From NCBI GenBank assembly GCA_965652295.1, contig CBFGTS010000002.1, forward strand, positions 1 to 64,000: 64,000 bases of DNA. The letters are read 5' to 3'. Shown here piece after piece: positions 1,135 through 50,630 of this stretch. Position numbers and translations under genes: made by a program. This DNA comes from an uncultured Haloferula sp. Its GTDB lineage: Bacteria; Verrucomicrobiota; Verrucomicrobiia; Verrucomicrobiales; Akkermansiaceae. The notes beneath the pieces are model-generated. The model worked only from the letters and a program-made list of their open reading frames with translations, made no database searches and was not told the DNA's origin. How positions within the stretch are numbered: the first letter of the stretch is position 1; the number at the start of each line of letters is the position of its first letter.

Positions 1135-1136
1135 GA

Positions 1137-2507: not shown

Positions 2508-2511
2508 CGAG

Positions 2512-32986: not shown

Positions 32987-33280
32987 ATGGCGACAAAACC
33001 CAAGCGACACAGCATGACCGAAGCCCTGAAACGGCGCGACGACGTGCAAGCCTTCCTTCAAGAGGGCAGGCCGCAACCCGAGAATACAGCGACCAAGAAC
33101 TCCTCCAAACCTGTCACCCAGACCATGGAGCCGCGCATCGCCGTCACCGTCCGCCTGCCGGAAAGCCTCGCCCACGCACTGATCGACGCCTCCGCCGACC
33201 GCCGGAAGAACCGCCAGAAGTCCTGGAGCCAGCAGGACATCGTAGCCGAGGCGCTGCAGCAACTTTTGGGTGCCGAGTAG
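32987..33280 (+). CDS. Small ParA partner, ParG-like ribbon-helix-helix protein
   Basis: GAGGAG RBS; flexible N-terminus then IAVTVRLPESLAHAL...QQDIVAEALQQLL. Confidence 0.7.
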   Translation: MATKPKRHSMTEALKRRDDVQAFLQEGRPQPENTATKNSSKPVTQTMEPRIAVTVRLPESLAHALIDASADRRKNRQKSWSQQDIVAEALQQLLGAE

Positions 33281-33351: not shown

Positions 33352-33374
33352 CACCACTTTGGTGCGAAGTGGTG
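33352..33374. promoter_or_regulatory. Palindromic operator upstream of mad1
   Basis: CACCACTT-N7-AAGTGGTG ending 4 bp before the ATG of the RHH gene; TTGCTG at 33342. Confidence 0.6.
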
Positions 33375-33378
33375 CGTC

Positions 33379-33555
33379 ATGAAAAATCGTCGCGATCCTG
33401 CCCAACGGGAAGCGGTCACCCGGCTCTCCATCAGCATCCCCGCAGTGGACAAGGCGGCGCTTGAGAAAATCGCCTTGGAAAAGAAGGTCAGCCTCGCGTG
33501 GGTGCTTCGGGATGCTGTTTCAAGATACTTGGAGACCGACCCGCCGGAACGCTGA
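33379..33555 (+). CDS. mad1: CopG/RHH regulator, MADS Mad1-like (58 aa, absent from the ORF track)
   Basis: MKNRRDPAQREAVTRLSISIPAVDKAALEKIALEKKVSLAWVLRDAVSRYL: beta-helix-helix RHH pattern; first gene of the operon. Confidence 0.85.
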   Translation: MKNRRDPAQREAVTRLSISIPAVDKAALEKIALEKKVSLAWVLRDAVSRYLETDPPER

Positions 33556-33639
33556 ACGTGCCATATTCCTCTCGACCATAGCCCTACAGATGTCCTTCCC
33601 CCCACGCCAACAATCCTCAACGTCTCCCTGAATCATCTC

Positions 33640-35640
33640 ATGCCCAAACAGAAGAAAACCGACCCCGACCGGCTGCTCAAGGCGGGGGAGGTCATGGACA
33701 TCATCACCGAACAGCCGGTGAAAGACACTCCCAAGGAGAAAATCCGGCAGGAGGTGGCCCGCCAGCTGATCTTCGAATACCAGATCGCCCCGGAGTCGAT
33801 GGAGAAGGACTTCAAGGTCAAGGTCGATGGCCGGAGCAAGAAAGTGGACATCGCCATCTTTGAGGCAGGAGAGGAACACATTGAGTCGAATCTGGTCCGG
33901 GTGGTGGTCTGTCGACCTGCCCCGAAGACGAGCAAGAAGGGCGTGGTCAAGATCCGCGACTTCAAGCAGGCGGCTAAAGACCTCGAAGAGCTGAAGCTCT
34001 TCATGCAGTCGGTCGATACCTGCGAGTGGGGCCTGTGGACGAATGGTCTGGAGCGGTTCTTCCTCCGTCGCGAGAAGAAGCGCTTCGAATACAAGTTCCA
34101 TCCTCATGGCGACTGGCCGATGGCCGACGGAACCATGACCACTCCGGACAAGCACCCGGAGATTGTGGGGCGGCCAGGAGAGGAGAGCGGCCTGAGGCGA
34201 GCTTTCCAGCGCTGCCACAACTTCATTCACGGCAACGAAGGCATGCCGAAAGACGCGGCCTTCTGGCAGTTTCTCTACCTGATCTTCGCCAAGATGTGGG
34301 ACGAGAAGCACAACCGAAACGAGAAGCGGCAGTTCTTTGCGGAGGCGACCGAGCCCTTCGATGAAGAGGGCCGCATGAAGATTCGCGCCCGGATCAAGCC
34401 TCTCTTCGAGGCGGTGAAGCGCCAGTATCCGACCTTGTTCCGCCCGAGTGACGAGATCACACTTTCCGACCGGGCTCTCGCCTATATGGTGATGGAGCTG
34501 GCTCGATACAATTTCACCCGTTCTGACGTGGACGCAAAAGGGGCGGCTTATCAGGAGATCGTGGGAGCCAATTTGCGGGGCGACCGGGGCCAGTATTTCA
34601 CCCCTCGCCGTGCCGTGGATCTTGTTGTCCGAATCCTCGATCCCAAACCCAACGAAGTCGCGGTCGACATCGCCTGCGGGACGGGCGGGTTCCTGGTCTC
34701 CACCCTGGCACATCAGCTCAGAAGGTTCAGGGCCGAATACAAGCGGGAGCCCGGTGATACGACCACAGACACCATCCTCGAACGCCTTCAGGACTACGCT
34801 CGGAATTATCTTTTCGGATCCGATTTCGACCCGTTCCTGGTTCGAGCTGCGACCATGAACGTCCTGATGGCGGCCAATGTGGAGGGAAACATCTTCCACA
34901 TGGATTCGCTGGCCTTCCCTAACAGCCACCTTGCCGGAAACGATCCTGCGAAACGGAAGATTCCGTTTGGATCGATCGACGTCCTGATGACCAACCCGCC
35001 GTTTGGCTCCGAAATCCCCATTACCGAACCGGCGATCCTCGACAGCAACCCGCTGGCAATCCGGTGGACCAAAAACAAGCAGGGTGAGTGGGAAGAGCAA
35101 ACCAACCGCCATAATGCAGTGGCCCCCGAGGTCCTCTTCATCTCGCAGGCGGTCAAGTGGCTCAAGGATGGTGGTCGGATGGGAATCGTTCTTCCTAACG
35201 GCATCCTGGGAAATCCAGGCGACGAACCGATTCGCCGATGGATCCTCCGAAATTGCTGGGTGCTTGCCTGCGTGGAGGTTCCGGTCGAGGCGTTCATCGT
35301 GGAGGCAAATGTGGGAATCCTCACAAGTCTGCTCTTCCTCAAGAAGAAGACTGAGGCTGAGATGTTTGCCGAAGCCCAAGGTCACACTAAGGAGTATCCC
35401 ATCTTCATGGCAGTGGCGGAGAAGGCAGGCGTGGACCGCCGTGGCAACACCCTTTACAAGCGCAATCCTGATGGCACCGAGAGGGTCGTCACTCGCGTCG
35501 TGACCGAGAAGGTTAAGATCAATGGCGAAACGATCGTGCGCGACCGCCAGCTCGTGGAGCCTGAGGTCGATGACGACTTTCCGACCATCGGCGATGCCTA
35601 TGAGGAATTCCGCCGCAAAAACCCCGAACCCGGATCATGA
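33640..35640 (+). CDS. mad2: N6-adenine DNA methyltransferase (HsdM-like) with N-terminal HsdR_N-like domain, MADS Mad2-like
   Basis: PKEKIRQ..KVDIAIF..WTNG; RGQYFTPR, DIACGTGGFL, TNPPFG, GRMGIVLPNG. Confidence 0.88.
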   Translation: MPKQKKTDPDRLLKAGEVMDIITEQPVKDTPKEKIRQEVARQLIFEYQIAPESMEKDFKVKVDGRSKKVDIAIFEAGEEHIESNLVRVVVCRPAPKTSKKGVVKIRDFKQAAKDLEELKLFMQSVDTCEWGLWTNGLERFFLRREKKRFEYKFHPHGDWPMADGTMTTPDKHPEIVGRPGEESGLRRAFQRCHNFIHGNEGMPKDAAFWQFLYLIFAKMWDEKHNRNEKRQFFAEATEPFDEEGRMKIRARIKPLFEAVKRQYPTLFRPSDEITLSDRALAYMVMELARYNFTRSDVDAKGAAYQEIVGANLRGDRGQYFTPRRAVDLVVRILDPKPNEVAVDIACGTGGFLVSTLAHQLRRFRAEYKREPGDTTTDTILERLQDYARNYLFGSDFDPFLVRAATMNVLMAANVEGNIFHMDSLAFPNSHLAGNDPAKRKIPFGSIDVLMTNPPFGSEIPITEPAILDSNPLAIRWTKNKQGEWEEQTNRHNAVAPEVLFISQAVKWLKDGGRMGIVLPNGILGNPGDEPIRRWILRNCWVLACVEVPVEAFIVEANVGILTSLLFLKKKTEAEMFAEAQGHTKEYPIFMAVAEKAGVDRRGNTLYKRNPDGTERVVTRVVTEKVKINGETIVRDRQLVEPEVDDDFPTIGDAYEEFRRKNPEPGS

Positions 35641-36941
35641 TCACGCGAATAGAAGCATACCGCTACAAATGCTTCGAGCGCCTTCGGCTCGATGTGGGTC
35701 GCTATCAAGTTATTGTCGGCCGAAACGGGGCGGGAAAATCCACACTTCTCGATATACCCGGCCTGATCGGCGAAATGCTGGAAGCTCGAGGTATCGAAAA
35801 GCCTTTTTTCGGCACTCGTGAGCGACTGGCACCGCGTGCGGTTGTTGCTGAGGATCTTCTCTTCGGGGGAAAAGGTGACTGGTTTGCTATTGCGATCGAG
35901 GCTGCCATTCCTGACGCGCTCATGACCCAGCTTGAGCGAAAGCGGTTCGAGGAGGCGACGAAGCGTGAACAAGCCCAGCTACAGAAACACCCCGAACGCA
36001 ACTCTGGCGTGGTTCGATACGAACTGGCCTTCCGAGTCGCCGACGGAGCCGTGACGATCTCTCAGGAGCAGTTGTTCCTACTTCCGAGAGACCGGGATCT
36101 CGTAGGGGATACACCGGACGGTCTTTGGGGTGACATCGAATTCCCAAGAAGCTCTCCCGTCCAGCGGGTGATCGGTCGTGGAAGTGATGGCGTCAGCCTG
36201 TTGGAGCCCGAGGTCGGGAAGCGAGGAACGCCACATCGTGCCAATATGCCTATCACGACGCCTGCGCTTTCCGGAGCACCAGTCGATCTGGGGCAGTTCG
36301 GAGTCAGCGACTGGTTACGCAATTATCTTGGACGGGATGTCCTCGCCGTGAACCTCAACCTTCCGGCCATGCGGGATGCCCAGCGTCGCCCGGCTGAGGG
36401 ATTCAAGGTCGCGGCGGACGGGACCACACTCCCATGGTCGGTACTGAATCTCGCAAAGAAAGCGGAGAGCCACGCGGAATGGGTGTCGCACATTTCGAGC
36501 GCTCTTCCGCTGATAGAGAATGTCACGGCTACCACGCAACCCGCCGACAATCGCGCCTACCTCGAAGTTGCCTATCGCACCGGATTTTCCGTCAAGTCCG
36601 TCGGCTTGTCGGACGGCACCTTTTCATTGTTAGCCCTCACCATTCTCCCTTTCCTGGACAACGTTCCCTCATTGGTGGCGGTTGAGGAGCCCGAGAATGG
36701 CATCCACCCCAAAGCGGTTGAAGTGATCCTGGAGTCCCTTCAAGTCATGGAAAGCTCGCAGGCCTGGGTGACCACCCACTCGCCCATCGTGGTCGCCGTA
36801 ACTGAGCCTGCAAATCTCATCTGCCTAACGATGACCAAGACCAACGGCGTGGAGGCCGTGCGAGGTGACCAGCACGATTTGTTGTCCAAATGGCAGGGTA
36901 TTCCCACCCTTGATGTTCTTTTCAGCTCCGGAGTCCTCTAA
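35637..36941 (+). CDS. mad3: ABC/AAA_21-type ATPase, MADS Mad3-like
   Basis: Walker A GRNGAGKST, signature LSDGT, Walker B VEEPENGIHP, TTHSP; ATGA overlap with mad2. Confidence 0.88.
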   Translation: MITRIEAYRYKCFERLRLDVGRYQVIVGRNGAGKSTLLDIPGLIGEMLEARGIEKPFFGTRERLAPRAVVAEDLLFGGKGDWFAIAIEAAIPDALMTQLERKRFEEATKREQAQLQKHPERNSGVVRYELAFRVADGAVTISQEQLFLLPRDRDLVGDTPDGLWGDIEFPRSSPVQRVIGRGSDGVSLLEPEVGKRGTPHRANMPITTPALSGAPVDLGQFGVSDWLRNYLGRDVLAVNLNLPAMRDAQRRPAEGFKVAADGTTLPWSVLNLAKKAESHAEWVSHISSALPLIENVTATTQPADNRAYLEVAYRTGFSVKSVGLSDGTFSLLALTILPFLDNVPSLVAVEEPENGIHPKAVEVILESLQVMESSQAWVTTHSPIVVAVTEPANLICLTMTKTNGVEAVRGDQHDLLSKWQGIPTLDVLFSSGVL

Positions 36942-37603
36942 TGCGCGACGTCATTTTCCATCTTGCCGATCAACACATGGAAGCAGGCTTCCGGGCCTTT
37001 TTCGCACGTGCCGACTGGCACCACGTGCTTGGCTGTGATCAATTCACAATCGATGCCGACAGCGAGCGGGACATTTACCGCAAAGGAGGCTACACCGATG
37101 GCGGTCTCTGGAAGCACGCCCATACGAACCTCACGCCCTTCAAAGAGGAATACCGTCGCGCGGTGATCGTACTGGATGCCGATTTCGAGCCGCATCCTGG
37201 CTCCGAAACTCTGCAAGCCGACATTTCAAGAAACATGCTCGCCGCCGGCTGGGAAGAGAACTCGTTTTGTGTGGTGGTAATCGACAAAGAACTCGAAGCC
37301 TGGCTATGGGCACCGAATCTGAACGTGGCGAAGGCCTTTGGTCACAACGACTTCGAGCAAATGCGCGCGGCATTAGCCGCTAAGCAGCTCTGGGACGATG
37401 GTGCTCCCAAGCCGAACGACCTCAAGCGAGCGCGCGACTTGGCAGCCAAGCTTGGAGGCAAGAGGACAGGTAGCCCCATCTTTAGGGGGGTCTTCGGTGG
37501 TATTTCGAAACGTGCCTGCGATTTGTGTCAGGAGGAAGGCTTTACCTCTATGCGAGCGGCAATCCGAACATGGTTCCCCAAAACGGAAGGAGGTGCCGCG
37601 TGA
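36941..37603 (+). CDS. mad4: TOPRIM/DUF4276-like protein, MADS Mad4-like
   Basis: VIVLDADF and VIDKELEAWLW motifs; TAATG coupling to the ATPase. Confidence 0.8.
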   Translation: MRDVIFHLADQHMEAGFRAFFARADWHHVLGCDQFTIDADSERDIYRKGGYTDGGLWKHAHTNLTPFKEEYRRAVIVLDADFEPHPGSETLQADISRNMLAAGWEENSFCVVVIDKELEAWLWAPNLNVAKAFGHNDFEQMRAALAAKQLWDDGAPKPNDLKRARDLAAKLGGKRTGSPIFRGVFGGISKRACDLCQEEGFTSMRAAIRTWFPKTEGGAA

Positions 37604-38985
37604 AGGCTTCGACTATCAAGAGCACTTGGCTGCCGAAGGGCGGCTTCCGTCTCGACTGTTCACCCTACCTCGGTGGGGCGATCGAAACGGAGATTCTGTT
37701 GGAAGAATTGCCGGTTCGGAAGGACTCACTCGGCAGCGTTACTAGTGCGATCTTTAACGGCCCGAAGTTTTCCCGGACGTTCGTTGACGATCCGGAGCAC
37801 GGGGTAAGATTCATTGGAGGCAGCGATTTACAAAAAGCGGATCTCGAAGAGCTGCCCTTATTGAGCAGATCGCAGGCCTATGGAAAACAACTCCGTCATC
37901 TAGAGATCAGGGAGGGCATGACGCTTATCACGTGTTCTGGAACTATTGGTAAAATGGCATACGCCCGGCAAGAGCTGGAAGGAATCTGGTCGTCGCAGCA
38001 TATTATGAAAGTTGTTCCGGATCCAGATGTCATTCGATCCGGTTACCTCTACGCGTTCCTGAGCAGTCGTTTCGGCGTTCCACTTGTGGTGGCGGGCACC
38101 TACGGTTCAATCATCCAGTCTATCGAACCTCATCACATTTCCGGTCTGTCTATCCCGAGATTCGGTGATGCAACCGAAGAGAAGATACATCAACTGATTG
38201 AGGATTCAGGCCGACTGCGAAGCCAAGCCAGTGAACTCAAGAAGAAAGCTGTTCGAAGATTCGAGTCAGCATGCGGTATTGGGCCTGCCATGCCGCCCCG
38301 CAGTTATCCTAGGCCGCTGTATGGACGGGCAACTTCACGGATGATGGATGCTAGAATGGACGCTACCTTTTACGTGCCACCCTGCACAGATGCTCGAGAG
38401 GCGTTCGACCACTCTGGAACAAACAGAGCGATTGGTGAGGTTGCTCGGGTATTCATCCCCGGAATCTTCAAGCGCCAATATTCCGAAGACCCCAACTTCG
38501 GCTATCCCTACATCACTGGGGCGGACGTGTTTTGTATTCGACCGCAAAGCAATCAGTTTCTGATGAAAGGAGTTGCTGAGAAATATGACTTGGTGCTCGA
38601 ACGAGGAATGATCCTGATTCACGAGGCGGGTCAGCGTTACGGGCTAATCGGAAGATCCGTCATGGTGGGTGACACCCTTGCTGGTTTTTCTTGCACGAAC
38701 AACATGGTTCGTGTCTTTCCAAAAAATCCTGACGAGGCCGGTTATATTTACACCGTACTGAGTAGTGAATTTGGGATCCGACTGCTCAAACGTGAGGCAG
38801 CTGGATCGTCGATTCCTCACCTTGATGAAGGGCGGGTCAGCCGCTTGAAGATTCCTTGGCCTAGCTCCGCAATCCGGAATGAGATCTCAGGGGTCATGCA
38901 TCAGGCCCGCTCGAATTGGGATTTAGCGGATAAGAGTGAGGAGGCCGCTCTCGAGCTTCTTTCGAACGCCATTCTAAATCACTGA
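37600..38985 (+). CDS. mad5: HsdS-like specificity subunit, MADS Mad5-like
   Basis: GGAGGT RBS plus GTG overlapping the upstream TGA; two TRD-like halves (RLDCSPY..GTIG..GSIIQSIEP..IP; RMDATFY..GLIG..GSSIPHLD..IP). Confidence 0.85.
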   Translation: MKASTIKSTWLPKGGFRLDCSPYLGGAIETEILLEELPVRKDSLGSVTSAIFNGPKFSRTFVDDPEHGVRFIGGSDLQKADLEELPLLSRSQAYGKQLRHLEIREGMTLITCSGTIGKMAYARQELEGIWSSQHIMKVVPDPDVIRSGYLYAFLSSRFGVPLVVAGTYGSIIQSIEPHHISGLSIPRFGDATEEKIHQLIEDSGRLRSQASELKKKAVRRFESACGIGPAMPPRSYPRPLYGRATSRMMDARMDATFYVPPCTDAREAFDHSGTNRAIGEVARVFIPGIFKRQYSEDPNFGYPYITGADVFCIRPQSNQFLMKGVAEKYDLVLERGMILIHEAGQRYGLIGRSVMVGDTLAGFSCTNNMVRVFPKNPDEAGYIYTVLSSEFGIRLLKREAAGSSIPHLDEGRVSRLKIPWPSSAIRNEISGVMHQARSNWDLADKSEEAALELLSNAILNH

Positions 38986-38992
38986 CTTTCCC

Positions 38993-41900
38993 ATGGCCCA
39001 AGTCATTCCCATCGGACAACCGGAGAACGACCCCGAGCGCAAGGTCATCGCACTGCTGCGTGACGGCCTACCCGACGACTATCGGGTGGTGCATAACTTC
39101 GAGCTTCGGGGCGAAGGTGGCCAGTGGTTCGAAATCGACGTGGCAGTGGTCGCTCCCCACGCCGTTTACCTCATCGACGTTAAATCGACCTACGGGGAGA
39201 TTCATGTGGCGGGCGGCAAGTGGCACCCGGAAGGAAGGACGCCATATGCTTCACCACTAGCCAAGCTGCGGCAGCACGCGAGGGTCTTTCATGGCATGTT
39301 AGCAGACGCAGCCGGCCCCGGGTCGCAGGGCCTTCGGCACGTTTGGAGTGAAGCCCTGATCATCCTGACAAATCCCAGTGCCGTGCTCCGCGACCCGGAA
39401 GGGCGGGATCGCGATCAAGTGTCCCACATCGACAAGGCGATCCAGCACCTGCGCGATCCGTCCCGGCTTCCGCAGGTCCACTTCACCCGAGAGTCAACCC
39501 AGCTCCATCTCGGAAAGATTCTGGCGATTTTCAGCGGCAAGAATGCCCGCCCCTCCCAGCAGTTGCCGCGTCTCGGCCTCTCCTGGCAGTGCGAGGAGCG
39601 GCTTACATCGAACGACTTCTACACCGAGTACCGTGCCAGAAACGCGACGGTCCAGACGGCCGAGCGGGTGATTCTTCGGCTCTACCGCGCCGACCCATAC
39701 AAGATGGCTGAGGAGCGGGAGGCGGAGCGGGTGCGCATCGCAAATGCCTACACGGCGCTGACGAAGCTTCCCCCGCACCCCTGCATCCCGGCCGCCCGGG
39801 ATTTCTTCCCGACGGAGCGCGAGGATGGCTACGTCTTGGTTCTCAATGATGCCCCCGGAAGCTCGCTCCGAGTCCACATTGCGAAGGCCCAACAGCAGCT
39901 GACCATGGATCAGAAGCTGAAGGTCGCCGAGGACCTGCTCAGTGCGCTGGCCCATTGCCATGCTCATGGCGTGATCCACCGGGGCGTTTCCCCGGACAGT
40001 ATTTTGCTCGGGCTCGATGGTAGGGCAAAGCTGATCGACTTCGACTTCGCCCGTCCGGGCGCTCCTCGGGAGCGCACCGTCGCTAGCGAAGTCGTCGCAG
40101 TCATCGATCACACCTATCTCGCACCGGAGCTGAAGGACAACGTCGCGAACGCAAGCGCGGCATCTGATGTCTATGCGGCCGGCGCAACCCTCTACGAACT
40201 ACTCACCGGCAAGCCGACCTTCAAGAGCCTGGAAGAAGGCATGAACGCGACCCACGTCTTCCCCGAGCGGGCGGGCGCGGTCATTGCAGACATGCCGGAG
40301 GGATTCGACGCGTGGCTGGAATCGCTCTGCCGGTTCGGTCCATCCGACCGCCCCGACGCCCACGATGCCCTCGCCGGTTTTCGAGTGCTTTTTGCGCCAC
40401 CTGCGATTCCCGCTGAAGAGGAGGCCGAGTCCACGGAAACGCTGGTGCCGATCGACTACACCAATCTGCCAGCAAAGTTCGAACTGAAGAACCGGTTTCT
40501 CGTCGAGGCACCGCTCGGCAAGGGAGGATTCGGAAGGGTCTACAAAGTGGTGGACACCTACGCGGATGAGACCCGGGCATTGAAGATCATTACCCAGGAT
40601 CGTTCATCGACCCGCGAGCGGATGAAGCAGGAGTTCCGCGTCCTTACGAAACTCCCGGCCCATGAGAACGTGGTCAGGGTCTTCGATGGCGATTGCCTCG
40701 AAGGAGACACGATCCCCTACATCCTGATGGAATACGTCGAGGGCGAGTCTGCTCTCGACCTGATTGGCCGACGGAAGCTGTCTCTCGCCGAAACGATCCG
40801 CCTCGGCATCCAGGTGGCGCAGGGTTTGGACCACTGTCACCGGAACGGAGTCTCCCATGGAGACATCAAGCCGGACAACCTGCTCTGGACGCCGCAGGGT
40901 GAGGTGAAAATCATCGATTTCAATGTCTCCGTCAAAGATGGCGATGACCTCGCTAGAGAAGGTGGAACCTTGAAATACGTCCCGCCCGAAACCGATCGAT
41001 CCATACCCTCCACATCTCAAGAACGGTATGAGCGCGACGTGTATGCCCTCGGCGTCACCCTCTATGAGGCTGTCACAGGCATTTACCCCTGGGAGGGATC
41101 GAAATCTCCGCTGCTCGGCAAGGGCGCCAAAGATCCAAGGGAACTCAGTGGCTGCGAGGACTTGTCCGAATCTCTGGCAACCCTGCTAGTGAATGTTATT
41201 GCCCCGGAAACGAGTGACCGATTTTCGAGTGCTTCGGACCTAGCAAAGGCGCTGACCGAGATCCAGTCGACCCTCCGGAAGCCAGCTGTTCTACGGGCGC
41301 CGACGATGCCGGCGATCTCACTGCCTGTAGCCAGGCCGAATACGAACCCCTTCGTTTCCTATCTCCTCACGCTCTACAGCCAAAGCAAGCGAACCAATGC
41401 AGGCACGCGGGGTCTGAATGACATGGGCCGCGCCATCTACGTCGAGACCGCCCTGGACCGCGAGCTTCAGCCCGCCACGTTGCAGGGCCAGTTTCGCCTC
41501 GTATTGATCAGCGGAAATGCCGGAGACGGTAAGACCGCCTTTATTCAGCAAATCGAGGAGCTGATCCGGAAGAACGGTCGGATAGTGGAACCGATCGCCT
41601 CGGGGAATGGCTCCCGCTTCGAGTGGGAGGGTCGCAAGTTCGTAACCAACTACGACGGCAGCCAGGACGAGGGAGACAAGGTCAACGATCAGGTGTTGAA
41701 GGAGTTCTTCAAACCGTTTGCTGGTGATGATGCTTCAGCTTGGGCGGACGAGGAAACGCGGATCATTGCAATCAACGAGGGTCGCCTCATCGATTTCCTT
41801 GAGCAGTTCGGCGGGGAGTATCGTCATCTTCGCAACGTGATTCAGCGGGGTCTTGCCACCGCGGTGCCAGAAGACGGAGTCGCGGTCGTGAACCTCAACT

Positions 41901-43132
41901 TGCGAAGCGTCGTCGCTGACGGAAATCAGCCGTCGATTGTTTCGAGCTTGCTCCGCCGCCTTTCGGCTCCGGAGTTCTGGGAGCCATGCGAGCAGTGCGA
42001 CTTAAAGGACAAGTGCTACGTCTATCACAATGCTCGGACCTTCGCCAATGAAACGGCGGGCTCTCAGGTGATTGAGCGGATCGAACTGCTCTACCGATTG
42101 GTGATCCTCCGCGGGAAGCTTCACATCACCATGCGGGACCTTCGGTCTTCGCTGGCTTACATGCTGGCAGGCACCCGCGATTGCGATGCAATTCATGAGC
42201 TTCACCAGTCGGGCAGGCCTGGAGAGTTCTTGCAGGGGTTCTACTTCAATAGCTATTCAGCGGTCGGTGAGGACCAGCCCAAGGACCGTCTGCTCCGCTT
42301 ACTGAAAGAGATCGACGTCGCCAAGACCAACGATCCGAAACTGGATCGGGCCTTCGACTTTCACCCGCCGGACCCGGCCCCCGCGCTCATGGATTTCGAC
42401 TCGCGCGAGGGCTATGATAGGGACCTTCTGAAGTCCGTCTACGCCGACCTGCCGCTGGACTACACAGCGCGGGAGAACCCGATCAGGCTGGCTCTACACC
42501 GACGCTACGTCGAGATGCTGCGCCGACGCCATTTCTTCGAAGCTCGTGACAAAAGCTGGAAACGGCTGATTCCATACGACGCAGGCAGCAGGATGCTTGA
42601 GCTCTTGCAAGACAACCCGGACCCAGACGGTTCCGCCCTGAAAATCATTGCGGCAATCAATCACGGAGAAGGAATTTCCCGGACAAGTCGTTTAAAAGGC
42701 AAGTTGGCGCTCCAAGTGCGCCAGGTGGACTCCGGAGTTCTTCGGAGCTACCGCGTTTTCGACGCAAGCCACTTCACGCTTGTCGCTCAGGAGTCGGCCC
42801 ACGAATCCAGATACATCGAGCACTCACCGAGCGCGCTCCTCTTGCGCTACCGGAACCCGGATACAGACCTCACTGGGGAGCTTGTGATCAACCTCGATGT
42901 GTTCGAGATGCTTGACCGGCTCAATCGGGGCTACAGGCCTACGGTCGATGAGTTGCAAGGTTACTACCTCTCTCTGGCCGTCTTCAAGAACATCCTCGGA
43001 TCCGCACCCTATCAAGAGGTCCTCCTGACGCCAAACACCCGCGAGTTCTATTCCGTAGCCCGCCACTCAGATGCGAGCCTCAAGATTAGCCTGGCAGAAG
43101 ACCCCGCCGAATACCATGCCACAAAGAGCTAA
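38993..43132 (+). CDS. mad6: NERD nuclease + two Ser/Thr kinase domains + P-loop ATPase, MADS Mad6-like
   Basis: EIDVAVV..LIDVK (NERD); kinase 1 HRGVSPDS/DFD; kinase 2 GKGGFG/HGDIKPDN/DFN; ISGNAGDGKT; IAINEGRL; CEQC..C. Confidence 0.88.
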   Translation: MAQVIPIGQPENDPERKVIALLRDGLPDDYRVVHNFELRGEGGQWFEIDVAVVAPHAVYLIDVKSTYGEIHVAGGKWHPEGRTPYASPLAKLRQHARVFHGMLADAAGPGSQGLRHVWSEALIILTNPSAVLRDPEGRDRDQVSHIDKAIQHLRDPSRLPQVHFTRESTQLHLGKILAIFSGKNARPSQQLPRLGLSWQCEERLTSNDFYTEYRARNATVQTAERVILRLYRADPYKMAEEREAERVRIANAYTALTKLPPHPCIPAARDFFPTEREDGYVLVLNDAPGSSLRVHIAKAQQQLTMDQKLKVAEDLLSALAHCHAHGVIHRGVSPDSILLGLDGRAKLIDFDFARPGAPRERTVASEVVAVIDHTYLAPELKDNVANASAASDVYAAGATLYELLTGKPTFKSLEEGMNATHVFPERAGAVIADMPEGFDAWLESLCRFGPSDRPDAHDALAGFRVLFAPPAIPAEEEAESTETLVPIDYTNLPAKFELKNRFLVEAPLGKGGFGRVYKVVDTYADETRALKIITQDRSSTRERMKQEFRVLTKLPAHENVVRVFDGDCLEGDTIPYILMEYVEGESALDLIGRRKLSLAETIRLGIQVAQGLDHCHRNGVSHGDIKPDNLLWTPQGEVKIIDFNVSVKDGDDLAREGGTLKYVPPETDRSIPSTSQERYERDVYALGVTLYEAVTGIYPWEGSKSPLLGKGAKDPRELSGCEDLSESLATLLVNVIAPETSDRFSSASDLAKALTEIQSTLRKPAVLRAPTMPAISLPVARPNTNPFVSYLLTLYSQSKRTNAGTRGLNDMGRAIYVETALDRELQPATLQGQFRLVLISGNAGDGKTAFIQQIEELIRKNGRIVEPIASGNGSRFEWEGRKFVTNYDGSQDEGDKVNDQVLKEFFKPFAGDDASAWADEETRIIAINEGRLIDFLEQFGGEYRHLRNVIQRGLATAVPEDGVAVVNLNLRSVVADGNQPSIVSSLLRRLSAPEFWEPCEQCDLKDKCYVYHNARTFANETAGSQVIERIELLYRLVILRGKLHITMRDLRSSLAYMLAGTRDCDAIHELHQSGRPGEFLQGFYFNSYSAVGEDQPKDRLLRLLKEIDVAKTNDPKLDRAFDFHPPDPAPALMDFDSREGYDRDLLKSVYADLPLDYTARENPIRLALHRRYVEMLRRRHFFEARDKSWKRLIPYDAGSRMLELLQDNPDPDGSALKIIAAINHGEGISRTSRLKGKLALQVRQVDSGVLRSYRVFDASHFTLVAQESAHESRYIEHSPSALLLRYRNPDTDLTGELVINLDVFEMLDRLNRGYRPTVDELQGYYLSLAVFKNILGSAPYQEVLLTPNTREFYSVARHSDASLKISLAEDPAEYHATKS

Positions 43133-44768
43133 AGATACTGCTTTCCGGCTACCCAAGGTGACGATCGTGGACTTCAAGTCCATTGAATTGGAGCGAACTC
43201 TCACCGCCCTGTTCGCGCGCATCTTCCACAATGGCCACGACAGCCGGTTGACCAAGCCGAACACCACAATCGAGGACTTCCGTGATCACATCCTTGAGCA
43301 ACCTGACCGGTTCCGGGACTTCGACAAGCATCCCGATGTGCTGCAAGGATGGCTGGAGGGCCATCTGCTCGACTTGGTGAATAGGGGTAAGCACAACCAG
43401 CAAGTAGCCGCTCCCCGACCGCTACACGGCTATACTTACCGGTTCCGAAACCCGAAACATTGCCGGGACTACGGCTCGGCCGAGCACCTCTACGAGATGC
43501 TTTGGCATGCCCGAAACGATCTCGGAAAACTCGCGATCAGCAGCCTCAAGCGCTTTTTTTTCGAGGGGGTCGACCCCAACACCCAGGAGCAAGATGCCGG
43601 GGTCAAGATCGACGTTGAGACCCAGGCGTTGTTGAGCCTGAGTCCTGGTCACATGCTGGAGGATGCGCCGGTCCACGGATCGCGAACGCCGACGCCCCCC
43701 CTGTGTATCGGGTCAGCCGATCTGCTAGCGGACGACATTCTAAGGTTGATGCAGTACCGGGCACGGATTCCCCGATCCGTGATGGTCGAGTACCTAAAGA
43801 TTCTCATTGGCTTTCACCTGGCGCTATACCACCTGCGTCTCTTGAAGCTTCTTCCAGAGATGGTGAAGAGGCAGGGCGTCGCGCCGAGCTGCGAAACAGG
43901 CCGATGCCCCGTCAAACCCGGAGCCGCCGAGTGTCCGTTCGGCGACTGTCCTTTCCAAATCGGGCTCTTCCTCGATGTGAAGAACCACCCGGGATCGGTT
44001 CCGGCGGCACTTGCCGAACGCAGCGCTGAGTTTCACTACCGAAGAATTCCGGGGTTCGTCAGATCCTACTACATGACGAAGAAGATGGATGAGTTTGCGT
44101 CGGATAGCTTGCGAATGGGCAAGCTGCCTGGCGGTGCTCAACGCCAGATGTCCGTACCAGAGGTGCTGGGCCTTCTGGCAGACAAGCACTCCAAAGACCG
44201 AGAACTCTACTTCCAAGCTCGGATGCTGAACATGCTTCCGGATTCGAGTAAGGACGACAGTTCGGAACCGGCGGAGTGGGAGCAGATCAGAAACCTCGGC
44301 CTCTCAGATCTTGAAACATTTGTTGAATGCCTGATGGCTCAGCGCGGCGAGTATCAGCGCCGCTTTATCGTGAAATGCCTCGATGCCTTCACCCTTAAGA
44401 ACCGCCCGGGTGCTTTGCTTGCTCAGGCTCGCTCTCCACGGGCACCCCGCCGATTCACCCTGGATAGCCGGCTGCTTGAGGTGCTGCTACAGATCAACGT
44501 TCTCGAATATAATTCAGACACCGGGCAATACCGGTCCGCTGAGATCCAGGTGGATAAGCTGCTGACAGTCCTGCAAAGGCGCTACGGGTTGTTCATCGAC
44601 CGCCTTCCTGTCGACGAGGGCTTTCAAGAGCCCACGATCGAGGAGCGTCAGGCGCTTCGCGAGAACAAAGAGGCGTTCAAGGAAAAGCTTCGGGAGATCG
44701 GGTTCTTCCAGGACCTATCGGACGCCTACATCACCCAGCACGTTCGCCCCCGGTATCAAATCGGATAA
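43116..44768 (+). CDS. mad7: MADS Mad7-like protein (DndG/DptG-like)
   Basis: Position between the kinase and the large ATPase; C-terminal LREIGFFQDLSDAYITQHV resembling DptG-type ends; Cys cluster. Confidence 0.78.
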   Translation: MPQRAKDTAFRLPKVTIVDFKSIELERTLTALFARIFHNGHDSRLTKPNTTIEDFRDHILEQPDRFRDFDKHPDVLQGWLEGHLLDLVNRGKHNQQVAAPRPLHGYTYRFRNPKHCRDYGSAEHLYEMLWHARNDLGKLAISSLKRFFFEGVDPNTQEQDAGVKIDVETQALLSLSPGHMLEDAPVHGSRTPTPPLCIGSADLLADDILRLMQYRARIPRSVMVEYLKILIGFHLALYHLRLLKLLPEMVKRQGVAPSCETGRCPVKPGAAECPFGDCPFQIGLFLDVKNHPGSVPAALAERSAEFHYRRIPGFVRSYYMTKKMDEFASDSLRMGKLPGGAQRQMSVPEVLGLLADKHSKDRELYFQARMLNMLPDSSKDDSSEPAEWEQIRNLGLSDLETFVECLMAQRGEYQRRFIVKCLDAFTLKNRPGALLAQARSPRAPRRFTLDSRLLEVLLQINVLEYNSDTGQYRSAEIQVDKLLTVLQRRYGLFIDRLPVDEGFQEPTIEERQALRENKEAFKEKLREIGFFQDLSDAYITQHVRPRYQIG

Positions 44769-44771
44769 CCC

Positions 44772-47700
44772 ATGGAAGCCACATTTCGCAGAATCAACTC
44801 AGACGACGTCGACAAACACCTCCAGCCGGTCTTGGAGGAAATGATCTCAGAGAGTCTGAGCACGCGACAGCCCGGACACTGCATGCGTGTTGGCAGCCTT
44901 TCCGGACCACTTATGGCCCGTCTCGCTGAAAGCTTGGTAGACCGATTCGACGGATCAGCCATGGTACACGTCCTTGGCACGCAGGAGGAGGCGGGGTCGT
45001 CCCCGCTATTCATTACCAGCAGTAAGCTGATCGAGCTTCGGAACCCGCTGCCCGACGGGACTCAGAGGCCACCATTGCTGGTATTCGTGCCCGATGATCT
45101 CCGAACATCGGCCGAGGATTCGTTCAGCGGTGCGACCTTTGAGCAGGTCGAATTGACCGACTCATACGCTGTGCTCAAGCAACGATTGCTGGAGGGAGTC
45201 CCGAACGGACTTCGATCCCAAGCGGAAGGCTGTATCAGAATTTTGGAGGAGCGCGCGTGGCCGATTGCCAATATGACCGGTGTTCTTCGATTTCTCCTGA
45301 GCATAAAGATCAACGGCTACGACGACGAAGTTCTTGGAGCCGCGCTTTGTGAGCTGGGGCTCATCCCCGATTTCAAGCTGCTTGAGGACCCTGCGATCGT
45401 GCAGAATCGGCTTTCAAAGAATCATGAATCCGCAAAGAACCTGCTTTTCTCGAATAGAAGCGTGGTGGGACGTGTCCTCGACCTGAAGATCGCCACGGAC
45501 AGTGTTCAGACAGCTCTGATTGGCTACTTGTCGGTAAATAATTTGGAGGACCCGGTAGCGTGGACTTCACAGCTTGCTTCGGATCCGCGTCTATACGGTT
45601 TGTCGTTTGACAAGTGGGGCACAGGAAGCAGTGAGGACTATGCCTACAATATTTTCGTCGAGGTAGTCTCCTTGGACCTCCCTGAAATCAAGAACGATGA
45701 GACGGATCCAAAACTCGGCCAGCTACCCCCGGGTCAGCGTGTGCTTGTCATAGGCGGAAGCGGCCCGCAGAAGTTTAAACTGAAGTTTAGGTGTTCGCCA
45801 GCGCCTTCGACAATCCCTGATCTGGATCACTTCAAGATCCAGATTGTGTCACGGGAGAATGGACCAACCGGCGCGGTGAAAAAGAAGAAGCGCTGGGAAG
45901 GAACCAGGCAGGAAGCCACCCAGAGTTTCACGAAAGTCCGCAGCCTCGATTGGGAAGAGGGCTGGCACTTCGTCCGGGTGCTCCCATATAACGCTGACGG
46001 AGACATTCTCCCGATCGTGAACGCGGCCGGCGAAGCCATTCCTGTTGTGGGCGAGGACGATGATGCCGAAACTCCTCACCAGAGCGATCTGTTCTACGTG
46101 ATCTGCGATGAGGAAGTGGAAATCGAGCTGCCTCAGCGTGCGGTGCCAAGGGTTCCATCTCTTCAACATGCCATTATCGGGAAGCTCTACGGCAATCTGG
46201 CGGACAGCTCGGGAGCAGAAGCTTCCGACCCTGTAAGGGTCAATTGGCAAGCTGCCGAGACGGGTTCCGACATGCTTGAGCTGGTGGAGTTCCGATTCCC
46301 AGGAGAAGGGGCAGTGAACATTCCATTGACCAGACCGCTACGGCAATTAGAGCAGGCGATACTCTCGAATCCCGGGGCAGTTGGACGCTGGAGCGTCTCT
46401 CTGAATCACGCCGATCGGGTAGAAATCTCGCCTGGGCCCGGTGAGATCGGAGGATCTGAGGTGTGTGATTCGTTTCTTGGCTCAAGAGGGAAGCTCTTCG
46501 AAATGATTCGAGGTGAAGACGAGCGTGGGCTGGTCGAACTCACTCAAATAGCGAGGATCGAAGAGACCGCACTGAACTATGCAGCCTCTTACTCGGAGTT
46601 GGTCGCACACGCGTTGCGCAGGGTGGAAATCGCGGGCCCAGACCAGCAGAAGCCGGCCCTGGAGGCACTCTCGGCAACGCTTGCAATCGACTCGGTGATC
46701 GTGAAGCTCACCGACTTCAAAGGTGGACGGCGGACCGGGTACTTGGTCGCGCCCACCCATCCGCTTCGGATGCTGTGGCTCGTGTGTTGGTCAAGACTAT
46801 CGGATGCCTGGGCCGATCAGCTTCGAAAAGGCAACCGGAACCAGGCTTCTTCGGTAAGGCAGGCACTTTTCGAATCGCTCGCGATGATCAACTTTCCCGC
46901 ATCGCTTGTCGGGCCGGCCGCGCGGATTCTTCAGTCTGTTGACAACATCCATCCATTGTGGACGGTCTACGCTGGCACCGATGAACTCGACCCGCGGGGA
47001 CTGGTTGCTGAATTATGCACGGCACTTTCGCTACCAGAGGCCCCGGTCGGTGGATTCTCGCTAAATGGTGAGTTTCTCGCTAATCGTCTGCGCCGCTATG
47101 TAATCCAACATCCCTACATCCAGACTCTCAGTCTGAACTGCTTCAACGCGGGCCGGGGTAAGATTCTCGCAGACGCTCTTCTCGCTCTACAAAAGAACGT
47201 CGACACCAAGAACCTTCGCTACGACCTCCGGCTATTTGTGGCGAATCCAGAGGCACCAGGGGTCGGCGACGACCTTTCCGAATTGATTTCTCCAAGCAGC
47301 AATTTGGCCGCGGCCGAAGCGGATGTTTTTGCGAGCCCAACCGGAGACCACCTCTCCCCCAAATTGACATTTTCGCTGAGGGGAATCTCGGAGTTCCAAG
47401 AACAGCCCTCTGAGTTCGGAGCCCACATCACCTTGTTGTTCGACGTCTTCCCCACACAAGCTGTAGGAACAAGGCCACCTGAGAACGCTGAGGATGCCGC
47501 TCCAATTCATGGATTGCTCCAAGACTTTTCGATCGTCTACGAGGAAGATGGCGACCGGGTTGCGTGGCACAAATCGCCACGTCATGGTGGCGCTATCCCT
47601 ATTCCCGATGCTGAGGAGCATTCGGATCTTCTTTCCGCTCTCGCCACGCAGCTCTCGACTGCCGCCGCGACGGTTGCAACCGGTCAGGCAGGAACGGCGC

Positions 47701-50321
47701 AAAGACCGGTTTCGACATTGGTGCTCGGGCCGAAGCAGAAAGCACTGCTACACCAAGTTCATGAGGTAAGTGATTGGGTCTTCACAATCGACAAGAGCAT
47801 GGGGGTCGAGTTCTTCGATCACCGCCCGAGCATCGACCGGCCCGAGTATCTGATCGACCATAGTCCTGATTTCTCGGCAAGCGGCGGAAGAAGGGTTGTG
47901 ATCACCTCCAGATCGCAGACCGAGATCCGGGTGATGTTCGAGCGGGTGCTTGCCGAGCACGGCTTGCAGGACTTCGCATCCCGATCTGCCGGGTTGCTTG
48001 CTGAACTCAGACTTCTCTCGGGAAGGCTCGCTCTCAAGCTGGTATCAGCATCGACACACAGGGCTGAGGCTCTCGGGCTCGCGCTTGGCAAGCTCTTCCT
48101 AGAGTACCAGTCTGCCTTTCAATGTCAGGCGGTAGTGCCCTTGGATTCGCACACAGATATTCTTCGGCCAGACCCAAATGCTCCGCTCGATCTTTCCGAG
48201 GAGGTGTCCCTCAGGCGCACCGATCTGGCGCTCTTCGATTTTGACGCTTCGAACATGAGCCTAGTCTGCCGGCTGGTCGAGGTGAAGTGCTACAAGAACG
48301 CAGGGGGCTCTCTCGAAGCCTTGGGCGCGTTGAAAGCAAGTATCGCCGAGCAACTCGACAGCAGCGAGCAGGCCATCCGAAGGCGCTTCAATCAAGAGGT
48401 GACACCTGACTCGGTCCGTCCTGACCGAGTAATTCGCACTCAGGAGTTGTGCAACCTGCTCGAGTTCTATGTGGAAAGGGCGCGGCGGCTCGGCCTTCTG
48501 ACCGGCAATGCCTACCAAGAGGCCAAGTATTTCCTCCGGTCGATGGAGAGGGGTTACGGGCTTCGCTTCACGAAGAGCGCCTTGGTGTTCGACTTCGAGA
48601 AGACAGGGTTTGAGGAGAGCATCGAGGAGAACGGTATCGAGTACCACAGAATTGGTCGGGATCTGATTGAACAGCTCGTTGAAGCTCTTCCAGCGGAGCA
48701 TTGGGGCACTGAAACCCTTCCGTTTGGAACTGAAAAGCAGGCTAAAAAGACCGATATTGAGGAGCAAGGTTCAAGAACACTCTCCGAGCTCCGCTCCCGC
48801 GACTTCCCGGTAGTTGAGAAGGCGGCATTCCTCCCGCCAAAGAGAGATCGGACCATTTCTTGGAGCAAGACCACGACCCGGGTTCCAGCGGTGCAGGATG
48901 GCGGCACGCAGCAAACTACTCAGACACCGACGCCCGAGGCGCCTGTCGAACTGACCAAGCCGGTTGCTACGCCTACCCCGCCCGAACCAACTGCCCCAAC
49001 GCCGACTGCTGAACAGCCAGCTCCTGAAGTCTCTCCCCAAGACGGCTCGTCTTCGAGTACGGAGAAGCCGATTGAACCATCTGTGCCAGCATCAGAGCCA
49101 TCAGGAGGAGTCGACGTTCAGACTAAGGATCCCGACGTGCTACTTGGCTCATCATCGTCCTCACCCCAGTTCGGGCATATCGCGAAGCTGCACGGCAGGA
49201 CGATCGCACTGGACTTGAACCAAACGCAGACCATCAGCCTCTTTGGAGTGCAAGGGGGAGGAAAGAGCTACACCCTTGGGACGATCATCGAGATGGCGAC
49301 GATGCCGATTCCGGGCATCAATCAGCTGCCGAAGCCTCTTGCGACCGTCGTCTTCCACTACAGCCAGACTCAGGACTACAAGCCGGAGTTCACCTCCATG
49401 AACCGGCCGAACGACGATGAAAAGTCCCTCAAGGCGCTGATTGACGACTACGCCGCCAGCGGAAGACCTCTCTCGGATCTCGTGCTCCTCGCTCCAGAAG
49501 GAAAGATTGCTGCACGGAAAGCCGAGTATCCTGACATCGAAGTCCTGCCGCTCAAGTTTGCGTCCTCCGAGCTGCAAGCCGGACACTGGCGGTTTCTTAT
49601 GGGCGCAGTTGGCAACCAGGCGACCTACATCCGACGCTTGAATCAGCTCATGCGCTCGATGAGGGAGAATCTCACCCTAGAAGCGCTCAGATCAGCCGTT
49701 GAGAATGCCGGTTTCACGGACAATCTCCGCGATCTTGCTATGATGCGTCTCGATCTGGCGTCGACCTACATCGACGACGCAGCCAAAATCTCTGAGGTCA
49801 TTCGTCCAGGCAGGCTCGTCATTGTGGACTTGCGCGACGAATTCATTGAAAAGGACGAGGCACTGGGTCTTTTTGTCGTCTTGCTTCAGTTGTTCTCCGA
49901 CGCGACCTACAACGGCGAGTTCTTCAACAAGCTCGTCGTATTTGACGAAGCTCACAAATACATCGAGAGCCCGGATCTGGTTGATGGCCTGGTGAGCGTG
50001 GTTCGTGAGATGCGCCACAAGGGAACTTCGGTTCTTGTCGCCAGCCAAGATCCTCCGTCGGTTCCGGTTGCGTTGATCGAACTCTCCACCCAGATCATCC
50101 TCCACCGATTCAACAGTCCTGCTTGGTTGAAACACATTCAGAAGGCAAACGCCGCGCTTTCGGGGATCCAGTCGGAGCAGCTATCGCGGTTACAGCCAGG
50201 TGATGCCTTCCTTTGGTCAGCGAAAGCCACCGACCGAGCCTTCTCGACGGAGGCCGTCAAAGTCCGGTGCCGACCACGAATCACGAAGCACGGGGGCGAT
50301 ACGAAGACCGCAGTTGGATGA
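44772..50321 (+). CDS. mad8: Large HerA/FtsK-type ATPase with PD-(D/E)xK-like motif, MADS Mad8-like (DndH/DptH-like)
   Basis: APTHPLRMLW; RRTDLALF..LVEVKCY; Walker A GVQGGGKS; Walker B VFDEAH; REMRHKG..ASQDP. Confidence 0.85.
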   Translation: MEATFRRINSDDVDKHLQPVLEEMISESLSTRQPGHCMRVGSLSGPLMARLAESLVDRFDGSAMVHVLGTQEEAGSSPLFITSSKLIELRNPLPDGTQRPPLLVFVPDDLRTSAEDSFSGATFEQVELTDSYAVLKQRLLEGVPNGLRSQAEGCIRILEERAWPIANMTGVLRFLLSIKINGYDDEVLGAALCELGLIPDFKLLEDPAIVQNRLSKNHESAKNLLFSNRSVVGRVLDLKIATDSVQTALIGYLSVNNLEDPVAWTSQLASDPRLYGLSFDKWGTGSSEDYAYNIFVEVVSLDLPEIKNDETDPKLGQLPPGQRVLVIGGSGPQKFKLKFRCSPAPSTIPDLDHFKIQIVSRENGPTGAVKKKKRWEGTRQEATQSFTKVRSLDWEEGWHFVRVLPYNADGDILPIVNAAGEAIPVVGEDDDAETPHQSDLFYVICDEEVEIELPQRAVPRVPSLQHAIIGKLYGNLADSSGAEASDPVRVNWQAAETGSDMLELVEFRFPGEGAVNIPLTRPLRQLEQAILSNPGAVGRWSVSLNHADRVEISPGPGEIGGSEVCDSFLGSRGKLFEMIRGEDERGLVELTQIARIEETALNYAASYSELVAHALRRVEIAGPDQQKPALEALSATLAIDSVIVKLTDFKGGRRTGYLVAPTHPLRMLWLVCWSRLSDAWADQLRKGNRNQASSVRQALFESLAMINFPASLVGPAARILQSVDNIHPLWTVYAGTDELDPRGLVAELCTALSLPEAPVGGFSLNGEFLANRLRRYVIQHPYIQTLSLNCFNAGRGKILADALLALQKNVDTKNLRYDLRLFVANPEAPGVGDDLSELISPSSNLAAAEADVFASPTGDHLSPKLTFSLRGISEFQEQPSEFGAHITLLFDVFPTQAVGTRPPENAEDAAPIHGLLQDFSIVYEEDGDRVAWHKSPRHGGAIPIPDAEEHSDLLSALATQLSTAAATVATGQAGTAQRPVSTLVLGPKQKALLHQVHEVSDWVFTIDKSMGVEFFDHRPSIDRPEYLIDHSPDFSASGGRRVVITSRSQTEIRVMFERVLAEHGLQDFASRSAGLLAELRLLSGRLALKLVSASTHRAEALGLALGKLFLEYQSAFQCQAVVPLDSHTDILRPDPNAPLDLSEEVSLRRTDLALFDFDASNMSLVCRLVEVKCYKNAGGSLEALGALKASIAEQLDSSEQAIRRRFNQEVTPDSVRPDRVIRTQELCNLLEFYVERARRLGLLTGNAYQEAKYFLRSMERGYGLRFTKSALVFDFEKTGFEESIEENGIEYHRIGRDLIEQLVEALPAEHWGTETLPFGTEKQAKKTDIEEQGSRTLSELRSRDFPVVEKAAFLPPKRDRTISWSKTTTRVPAVQDGGTQQTTQTPTPEAPVELTKPVATPTPPEPTAPTPTAEQPAPEVSPQDGSSSSTEKPIEPSVPASEPSGGVDVQTKDPDVLLGSSSSSPQFGHIAKLHGRTIALDLNQTQTISLFGVQGGGKSYTLGTIIEMATMPIPGINQLPKPLATVVFHYSQTQDYKPEFTSMNRPNDDEKSLKALIDDYAASGRPLSDLVLLAPEGKIAARKAEYPDIEVLPLKFASSELQAGHWRFLMGAVGNQATYIRRLNQLMRSMRENLTLEALRSAVENAGFTDNLRDLAMMRLDLASTYIDDAAKISEVIRPGRLVIVDLRDEFIEKDEALGLFVVLLQLFSDATYNGEFFNKLVVFDEAHKYIESPDLVDGLVSVVREMRHKGTSVLVASQDPPSVPVALIELSTQIILHRFNSPAWLKHIQKANAALSGIQSEQLSRLQPGDAFLWSAKATDRAFSTEAVKVRCRPRITKHGGDTKTAVG

Positions 50322-50419: not shown

Positions 50420-50630
50420 GGGCCTCCTTGGTGACTCGGTGAATCCGCCCGATCTCGCCCCGCTTGAGCTGACCCTTGATCTCTTGGGCGAGCGCGAGGG
50501 CGCTCTTCTCGTCCTGGCGATCCTTAACCTGCCGGGTCATCCCGGGTGGACTCCAGGTGACGCGCCACGGCTTCCCGGGCGACCCCGGGGAGTAGATCTT
50601 GACCGGGCCATCTGTGGAGTGGAGAGGCAC
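50420..50630 (-). pseudogene. N-terminal fragment of a tyrosine integrase-like protein
   Basis: VKIYSP..PWRVTW..RQVKDRQDEKSALALAQEI (arm-binding-like strand/helix pattern); directly downstream of ssrA; no catalytic R-HxxR-Y domain. Confidence 0.55.

Follow-up and report, generated by a model that had tools for sequence, protein, structure and literature searches.

A MADS defense operon with a ribbon-helix-helix gene in front, in a Haloferula-like member of the Verrucomicrobiota

We analyzed a 64,000-nucleotide stretch of DNA (the window) from an uncultured Haloferula sp. (GenBank assembly GCA_965652295.1, contig CBFGTS010000002.1). Positions 33379-50321 of the window are filled by eight open reading frames (ORFs), all in the same (+) orientation. 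The first encodes a small ribbon-helix-helix (RHH) protein, and the other seven correspond to mad2-mad8 of the defense system MADS. (Bit scores are against NCBIfam profiles.)

33379..33555, +: CopG-type RHH protein, 58 aa (RHH_1, E = 7.5e-7); occupies the usual place of mad1 but is not MAD1
33640..35640, +: mad2, N6-adenine methyltransferase (NF047738, 923 bits, cut-off 720)
35637..36941, +: mad3, ABC/SMC-type ATPase (NF047739, 401 bits over residues 1-434, cut-off 420)
36941..37603, +: mad4, predicted Toprim-like nuclease (NF047734, 165 bits, cut-off 160)
37600..38985, +: mad5, HsdS-like specificity subunit, 461 aa, whose GTG start overlaps the mad4 stop (NF047740, 482 bits, cut-off 400)
38993..43132, +: mad6, with NERD nuclease, pseudokinase, Ser/Thr/Tyr-type kinase, and DndF/SspF core (NF047741, 720 bits, cut-off 460)
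43116..44768, +: mad7, DndG-fold protein, 550 aa (NF047733, 605 bits, cut-off 410; SspG, E = 1.6e-8)
44772..50321, +: mad8, DndH-like, with a methyltransferase-fold middle, a PD-(D/E)XK motif, and a HerA-type ATPase (NF047742, 205 bits, cut-off 175)

The proteins are 58, 666, 434, 220, 461, 1379, 550, and 1849 amino acids long, in gene order. At four of the seven junctions the genes overlap (by 4, 1, 4, and 17 nt), and at two they are separated by small gaps (7 nt and 3 nt); the RHH gene lies 84 nt upstream of mad2. The most likely starts of mad5 (GTG at 37600) and mad7 (ATG at 43116) agree with the starts of their homologues. All of the frames are full length, within the range of 40-77 homologues per gene, and the 17 kb contain no frameshift or stop. 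An earlier reading of the window, made from the sequence alone, had described eight co-oriented, mostly overlapping genes with intact frames; the ORF coordinates (four of the seven junctions overlap) and the homologue lengths bear this out, and its domain labels were all recovered (RHH_1, N6_Mtase, AAA_21, Methylase_S, NERD with two kinase domains, and a HerA-like C-terminus). Contig pieces from run X2 of the same study showed no differences from the operon (8 pieces, among the matches listed), and short contigs from a second study showed 0-2 differences inside it. The GC content of the operon is 57.4%, as compared to 63.5% for the genome, and is lowest in mad5 (52%). The host appears, from its DnaB (83-85% identical to proteins named Haloferula), to be a Haloferula-like member of the Verrucomicrobiota, which agrees with the earlier placement in the PVC superphylum. 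Its genome is 98% complete and was used for the whole-genome profile searches below.

The operon is almost certainly a member of MADS. MAD2, MAD4, MAD5, MAD6, MAD7, and MAD8 pass their NCBIfam cut-offs. MAD3 is just under (401 of 420 bits), and despite this the MAD3 profile is its best NCBIfam match along the whole protein. PADLOC calls mad2-mad8, although partial HEC-01A matches slightly outscore mad3 there, and the gene order is that of named MADS loci. In the model of the authors who described MADS, MAD6, MAD7, and MAD8 are mandatory within 10 genes and the other proteins are accessory (preprint, bioRxiv 10.1101/2023.03.30.534895). The three mandatory proteins are all present and adjacent here, and both accessory pairs (MAD2 with MAD5 and MAD3 with MAD4) are present as well, MAD3 by its best profile, position, and motifs. 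We assign the locus to MADS because only the three are mandatory and the rest are accessory. PglX, PglY, and PglZ gave no match among the listed hits of the operon genes. Thus, the PADLOC and NCBIfam results uphold the earlier identification of MADS rather than BREX/Pgl or DISARM. The description as a complete mad1-8 operon holds for seven genes, which match mad2-mad8 in canonical order, but not for the first, which matches neither MAD1 profile. The locus is a further copy of a described system with a different small regulator gene in front, and it is unusual only in that and in its host group.

The operon was also said to lack an HsdR translocase, and indeed the HSDR_N profile has no match across the host genome (the control matched in 8 of 14 genomes). 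The accompanying claim that the window has no dndBCDE genes is borne out for dndC and dndD: in the whole host genome, DndC has no match and DndD has none over its cut-off, in a search whose profiles did not include DndB, DndE, or SspBCD. Two PADLOC profiles for SspE matched nothing anywhere, controls included. MADS resembles type I restriction-modification in that the locus encodes HsdM-like and HsdS-like subunits and in that tested MADS has a bipartite N6-methyladenine (m6A) motif, but MADS has two other effector modules and no HsdR. As compared to the MADS of Pseudomonas aeruginosa SMC4386, our locus has the same mad2-mad8 order, a type I-like methylase pair, and a host with type I CRISPR-Cas (I-C here), but it has the RHH gene instead of MAD1. 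Also, the host belongs to the Verrucomicrobiota, which is absent from the preprint's list of phyla (bioRxiv 10.1101/2023.03.30.534895), and a literature search found no paper connecting MADS with that phylum. This fits the earlier view that an instance in the PVC superphylum is probably uncharacterised. In the nearest Pseudomonas loci, MAD7 is 51-52% identical and MAD5 is 36-48% identical to ours, so the methylation motif probably differs.

The checked catalytic motifs of MAD2, MAD3, and MAD4 are intact. MAD2 has its S-adenosylmethionine (SAM) motif and NPPF. MAD2 and MAD5 both score over their cut-offs, and the methylase pair is type I-like (HsdM/HsdS), as had been proposed. The N-terminal HsdR_N-like domain of MAD2 has no nuclease motif, and the same is true of the homologues shown. 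MAD3 has its Walker A, signature, Walker B, and H-loop motifs. MAD4 keeps D10, D53, D79, D81, E117, E119, and K162, each numbered 2 lower than its counterpart in the putative active site of the P. aeruginosa protein structure (a mapping based on spacing). The P. aeruginosa MAD3-MAD4 pair is reported to be a 2:2 ATPase-nuclease that is toxic when co-expressed and that is related to OLD, Gabija, and PARIS (PMC13662399). Our pair has the same ATPase motifs as this ATPase-Toprim nuclease and all seven residues of its putative active site, but it lies on a divergent branch, with about 36% (MAD3) and 32% (MAD4) median identity to most named loci.

By profile and by modeled fold, MAD6, MAD7, and MAD8 are homologues of DndF, DndG, and DndH, as expected from the earlier claim of a DndFGH-like complex. 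Residues 791-1379 of MAD6 match SspF (E = 1.5e-28) and DndF (E = 9.3e-10). A DndF core is defined by a P-loop, a Walker A motif, an Asn in Walker B, and an optional Zn insert (PMC10853773); MAD6 has the Walker A motif and the Asn, and these motifs are invariant in 63 of 63 homologues. The same article describes DndF fused to NERD, an inactive kinase, and an active kinase, with no mention of MADS by name in its main text. This matches MAD6, whose NERD motif is intact and whose second kinase is complete. In the first kinase, every one of the 63 homologues has Arg in place of the lysine, and 60 of them have no catalytic Asp.

The seventh gene, which the sequence-only reading left as unknown, is mad7 and encodes a protein with a predicted DndG fold. 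An AlphaFold2 model (pLDDT 72.5) aligns to DndG (7exx) with Z = 16.8 and a root-mean-square deviation of 6.1 over 360 residues, and this was the sole chain among 48,161 with Z of at least 5. Foldseek also ranked DndG first (E = 1.3e-3). In the case of MAD8, DndH is described as having target-recognition domains, a dead methylase, a nuclease, and a HerA/FtsK ATPase (PMC10853773). A model of MAD8 residues 600-1320 (pLDDT 79.9) has a SAM-methyltransferase fold at about 745-1050 (best Z 11.9), which is followed by the nuclease motif and then by the HerA-type ATPase, in the same order as in DndH. MAD8 keeps D1151, E1170, K1172, Walker A, Walker B, and the sensor Gln. When the PDB was searched with MAD8 by phmmer, the matches were weak ones to TdpA/HerA and included no chain of DndH; the search with the middle model did not retrieve BpuSI-type enzymes, as generic methyltransferases filled the match list; and residues 1-509, where counterparts of the N-terminal SWI2/SNF2 remnant, helix-turn-helix (HTH), and beta-sandwiches of DndH would be expected, had no PADLOC match.

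MAD6-8 thus resemble DndFGH and SspFGH in the DndF core, the DndG fold, and the DndH-like methylase fold, nuclease, and HerA ATPase, but they are paired with an adenine methylase and a specificity subunit, in a genome in which DndC and DndD were not found. The N-terminal half of MAD6 (NERD, pseudokinase, and kinase) also occurs in PglW of type 2 BREX/Pgl (PMC12839542), but the C-terminal half is DndF-like, and the PglW profile covers only residues 15-700 with 220 bits (cut-off 990). So, the label of a PglW-like sensor was right about the shared N-terminal half and missed the DndF/SspF half; also, published deletions suggest that MAD2-MAD5, and not MAD6, is what tells self from non-self. Our literature search found no paper that joins MADS to DndFGH, DndG, or DndH; it covered neither the journal version of the MADS work nor the preprint's supplements, which may already state the link.

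A comparison across MADS loci shows that mad3-4 is a plug-in cassette that has been exchanged relative to mad2. We collected 80 loci, of which 62 hold both mad2 and mad5. mad3-4 lies between these two genes in 39 of the 62 and not in the other 23, where mad2 and mad5 are adjacent (21 loci) or separated by an AlbA-ATPase gene (1) or a PIN gene (1). Whole-genome searches for MAD4 in 10 of the 23, in genomes of unstated completeness, gave no match in 8, a full copy elsewhere in 1, and a short remnant in 1. In two cyanobacterial loci, mad3-4 is downstream of mad8 on the opposite strand (L040:17158-18407 and L044:17350-19082). The window's MAD2 is sister to that of locus L103 (88% identical), while its MAD3 and MAD4 group with L106. 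In approximately unbiased (AU) tests, for which we picked the pairings after seeing the trees, a grouping with L103 was rejected for both MAD3 and MAD4 (p = 4e-38 and 2e-40, respectively), as was a grouping of MAD2 with L106 (p = 0.005). Incomplete MADS subtypes had already been noted by the authors (bioRxiv 10.1101/2023.03.30.534895). The slot after mad2 holds an AlbA-ATPase gene, a PIN gene, or an apparent second specificity gene in L047:2387-4351, L037:470-2434, L063:3961-4377, and L023:2667-4088.

The first gene differs from that of other MADS loci, and it is preceded by a possible operator:

33352..33374, no strand: inverted repeat with 8-nt arms and a 7-nt spacer, 4 nt before the RHH start (predicted candidate operator)

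We ruled out the first gene as mad1: MAD1 is an excisionase-type HTH protein, and the RHH protein matches neither MAD1 profile. In other loci, the gene that precedes mad2 matches the MAD1 profile NF047737 with 91-97 bits (cut-off 80), and a profile search did not find MAD1 in the host genome. Sequence upstream of mad2 is available at 58 loci. An excisionase-type HTH gene is present there in 41 and neither type in 17, including the five closest named loci, and no locus has a gene that matches the RHH of the window. Similarly, we saw neither a MAD1 HTH gene nor an RHH gene at 29 metagenomic loci, of which several are near-duplicates and 25 extend over 300 nt beyond mad2 on the upstream side. Among 300 other genomes of the class, five hold relatives of the RHH gene, at 6 loci in total, and all six directly precede a defense-type gene (HsdR-type in two, SNF2 in two, DUF499, and a DEAD helicase). 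Because of these neighbors, we infer that the RHH protein is a generic autoregulator of defense operons that took the place of mad1. The preprint reports that deleting mad1 in P. aeruginosa has little effect, i.e., it is dispensable (bioRxiv 10.1101/2023.03.30.534895).

When 3000 random 60-nt windows were examined, 56 contained an inverted repeat of this kind, and none of the six RHH relatives has an 8-nt repeat at the corresponding place. TGCG/TGCA-like words before the start are common to the relatives (L144-L149). Searches of plasmids and phages returned nothing similar to the RHH, and a scan for sigma-70-like promoters, which covers that promoter type only, found none at 33200-33700. The RHH gene could serve as a marker for locating defense operons.

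The operon is flanked by remnants of an integrative element:

31185..32339, +: Fic-domain gene on the left side of the island; homologues lie directly 3' of tmRNA in genomes G008 and G011
32340..32975, +: ParA-like ATPase frame (NF041546, E = 1.4e-38) with no standard start codon, probably 5'-truncated
32987..33280, +: 97-aa probable ParA partner, so labeled from its position, with no convincing profile match
50424..50630, −: truncated tmRNA-targeting tyrosine integrase; the first 69 codons are present and the rest is missing
50774..51133, −: tmRNA gene, the likely integration site

The locus was probably acquired horizontally, and the operon is cargo of a decayed integrative element that is probably no longer mobile. 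It converges head-on with the integrase fragment, beyond which lies the 3' end of tmRNA. The fragment shares 64% identity with the N-terminal part of a Phage_integrase protein of 398 aa that adjoins tmRNA in L101, from a genome of the same family. A search of the host genome for a repeat of the tmRNA 3' end found none, and so the left attachment (att) site was not located. Nor did we find an empty site: the E2 gene never adjoins tmRNA in the 32 relatives with flanking E2, and in the closest relative the DNA after E2 maps to another contig. MAD7 had no match in 60 relatives, 34 of them of the same genus, and its profile cut-off was passed in 4 of 400 other Verrucomicrobiota genomes; in genome G040, a search with the MAD7 sequence of the window gave no match, and the profile gave a weak one under the cut-off. 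In a quick tree of MAD7, the window falls in a set of seven rows, five of them from Verrucomicrobiota (SH-aLRT 95, with a long end branch). This grouping suggests that MADS was acquired by transfer within the phylum.

Several other features of the region and the host were apparent. A 90-bp remnant of the 3' end of fic (30827-30915) lies directly after the stop of E2, and a second full copy of fic (85% protein identity) is on contig C5 of the host. The 3' end of tmRNA is an integration hotspot in the family, with integrases or their remnants in several genomes (L082, L088, L091, L094, and L099-L101); L094 also carries the tmRNA end twice. Near the start of the contig, 113-3174 is possibly a broken second defense locus, with a transposase-like gene (HTH_38 and rve, 113-1066), a 456-aa ORF, and an N-terminal fragment of HsdM (2512-3174). 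The host's type I-C CRISPR-Cas genes are cas3, cas5, cas8c, cas7, cas4, and cas1 (L150, G000:C8:203000-215331). Finally, L104 (5511-6853) and L105 (7725-9067) are decayed copies of MADS that lack mad7 and have the beginning of mad6 joined directly to part of mad8.

How might this system work? The best explanation as a whole is probably that it is an acquired type I-like restriction-modification system in which HsdR has been replaced by two effector modules. Type I restriction requires HsdM. In P. aeruginosa MADS, according to the preprint, m6A in TCAGN4TCC depends on mad2, and restriction needs an unmethylated site, so that methylated phage escape; mad2-4 and mad6-8 are required, mad2 tolerates deletion, and mad5 does so only when mad2 or mad3 is deleted too (bioRxiv 10.1101/2023.03.30.534895). 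As the unmethylated mad2 mutant survives, restriction seems to need MAD2. In our locus, MAD2 and MAD5 would methylate adenines in a bipartite motif on host DNA, as they do in P. aeruginosa, probably at a different motif. (The P. aeruginosa motif occurs 933 times in the host genome, as compared to 582 by a crude expectation, so it is not depleted, which is uninformative about the local motif.)

MAD2-MAD5 may also recognize unmethylated sites on incoming DNA and so license restriction. This role is suggested by the published deletions, because the mad2 mutant survives unmethylated whereas DndFGH harms cells that lack its mark (PMC11662687). MAD6-MAD7-MAD8 would then act as a kinase-fused DndFGH-type machine in which the HerA motor of MAD8 translocates and the PD-(D/E)XK nuclease nicks, by analogy with DndFGH, a 2:2:1 nickase that is coupled to translocation (PMC11662687). 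We lean towards these two steps, taken jointly. MAD3-MAD4 would be the second, exchangeable ATPase-Toprim nuclease; its activity has been reported for the P. aeruginosa pair (PMC13662399), and the restriction scheme of the sequence-only reading had left it out. The intact kinase of MAD6 might tune the complex or, together with NERD, provide a back-up, which is speculative, and the RHH protein presumably autoregulates the operon in mad1's stead.

Four points weigh against this reading. First, mad3 and mad4 are reported to be required in P. aeruginosa, so loci without mad3-4 may be impaired copies and not a second functional form. Second, MAD8 matches DndH (E = 4.6e-9) over only about 150 residues. 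Third, some near-invariant columns are not conserved in the window's proteins (46 of 514 in MAD8, 22 of 383 in MAD6, and 13 of 89 in MAD3). The changes are mostly conservative, none of them hits a checked catalytic residue, and those in MAD8 fit its long branch in the tree. Fourth, the element around the operon is decayed.

More tentatively, and we think it rather unlikely when taken as a whole, a type I methylase would have adopted a kinase-fused DndFGH as its restriction subunit; mad2-5-6-7-8 would be complete alone; MAD3-4 would be an added nuclease module that loci acquire, lose, and exchange; and the MAD6 kinase would phosphorylate its own complex as an off-switch. The self-switch is suggested by a kinase of phage JSS1 that disables DndFGH by phosphorylation (PMC12345140).

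Another possibility, which was the wiring proposed in the sequence-only reading, is that MAD2-MAD5 only writes the mark and MAD6-7-8 alone reads it, with methylation damping the motor. This would fit the homology to DndFGH, whose ATPase is repressed by phosphorothioate (PT) marks (PMC11662687). Also, DndH is described as having target-recognition domains and a dead methylase (PMC10853773), and MAD8 has a methylase fold. However, DndFGH harms unmarked cells, yet an unmethylated mad2 deletion was reported. Also, MAD5 varies much faster than MAD6-8 (46% vs. 82% identity in L103), and a separate reader in MAD8 would have to track each change of specificity. We therefore consider this wiring improbable.

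It is less probable still that the operon is intact but silent, or weakened, as cargo of a dead integrative element. The integrase is truncated, the ParA frame lacks a start codon, no att copy was found, the scan at 33200-33700 gave no sigma-70-like match, and most of mad6-mad8 is gone from two close loci, L104 and L105. But the operon has kept 17 kb without a frameshift or stop, and its checked catalytic residues, though the flanking mobility genes broke; furthermore, mad1 is reportedly dispensable, and the promoter scan was limited to one type. Finally, DndFGH has been proposed to stand alone, with NERD and kinases serving as suicide effectors (Rakesh et al., PMC10853773), but it is very unlikely that MAD6-7-8 is such a DndFGH-type or abortive-infection unit, triggered by phage molecules, with the methylase pair and MAD3-4 as separate neighbors, because mad2 and mad5 directly precede mad6 in nearly all loci of sufficient length, the identity of MAD6 and MAD7 to the window tracks that of MAD2 (rho = 0.88 and 0.81; the kin are not independent), and methylated phage are reported to escape MADS as a whole (bioRxiv 10.1101/2023.03.30.534895).

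The locus itself is ordinary, one more MADS, although it extends the range of the system to the Verrucomicrobiota; the comparison across loci is more useful. Reviews still give the restriction step of MADS as unknown. The DndF/G/H assignments point to specific residues for mutation, and loci without mad3-4 offer a direct test of which module cuts DNA. If the reading of mad2-5-6-7-8 as a core is true, then this locus and its natural sister loci without mad3-4 would be a ready test pair. More broadly, the comparison bears on how one restriction machine couples to a phosphorothioate mark or to a methyl mark.

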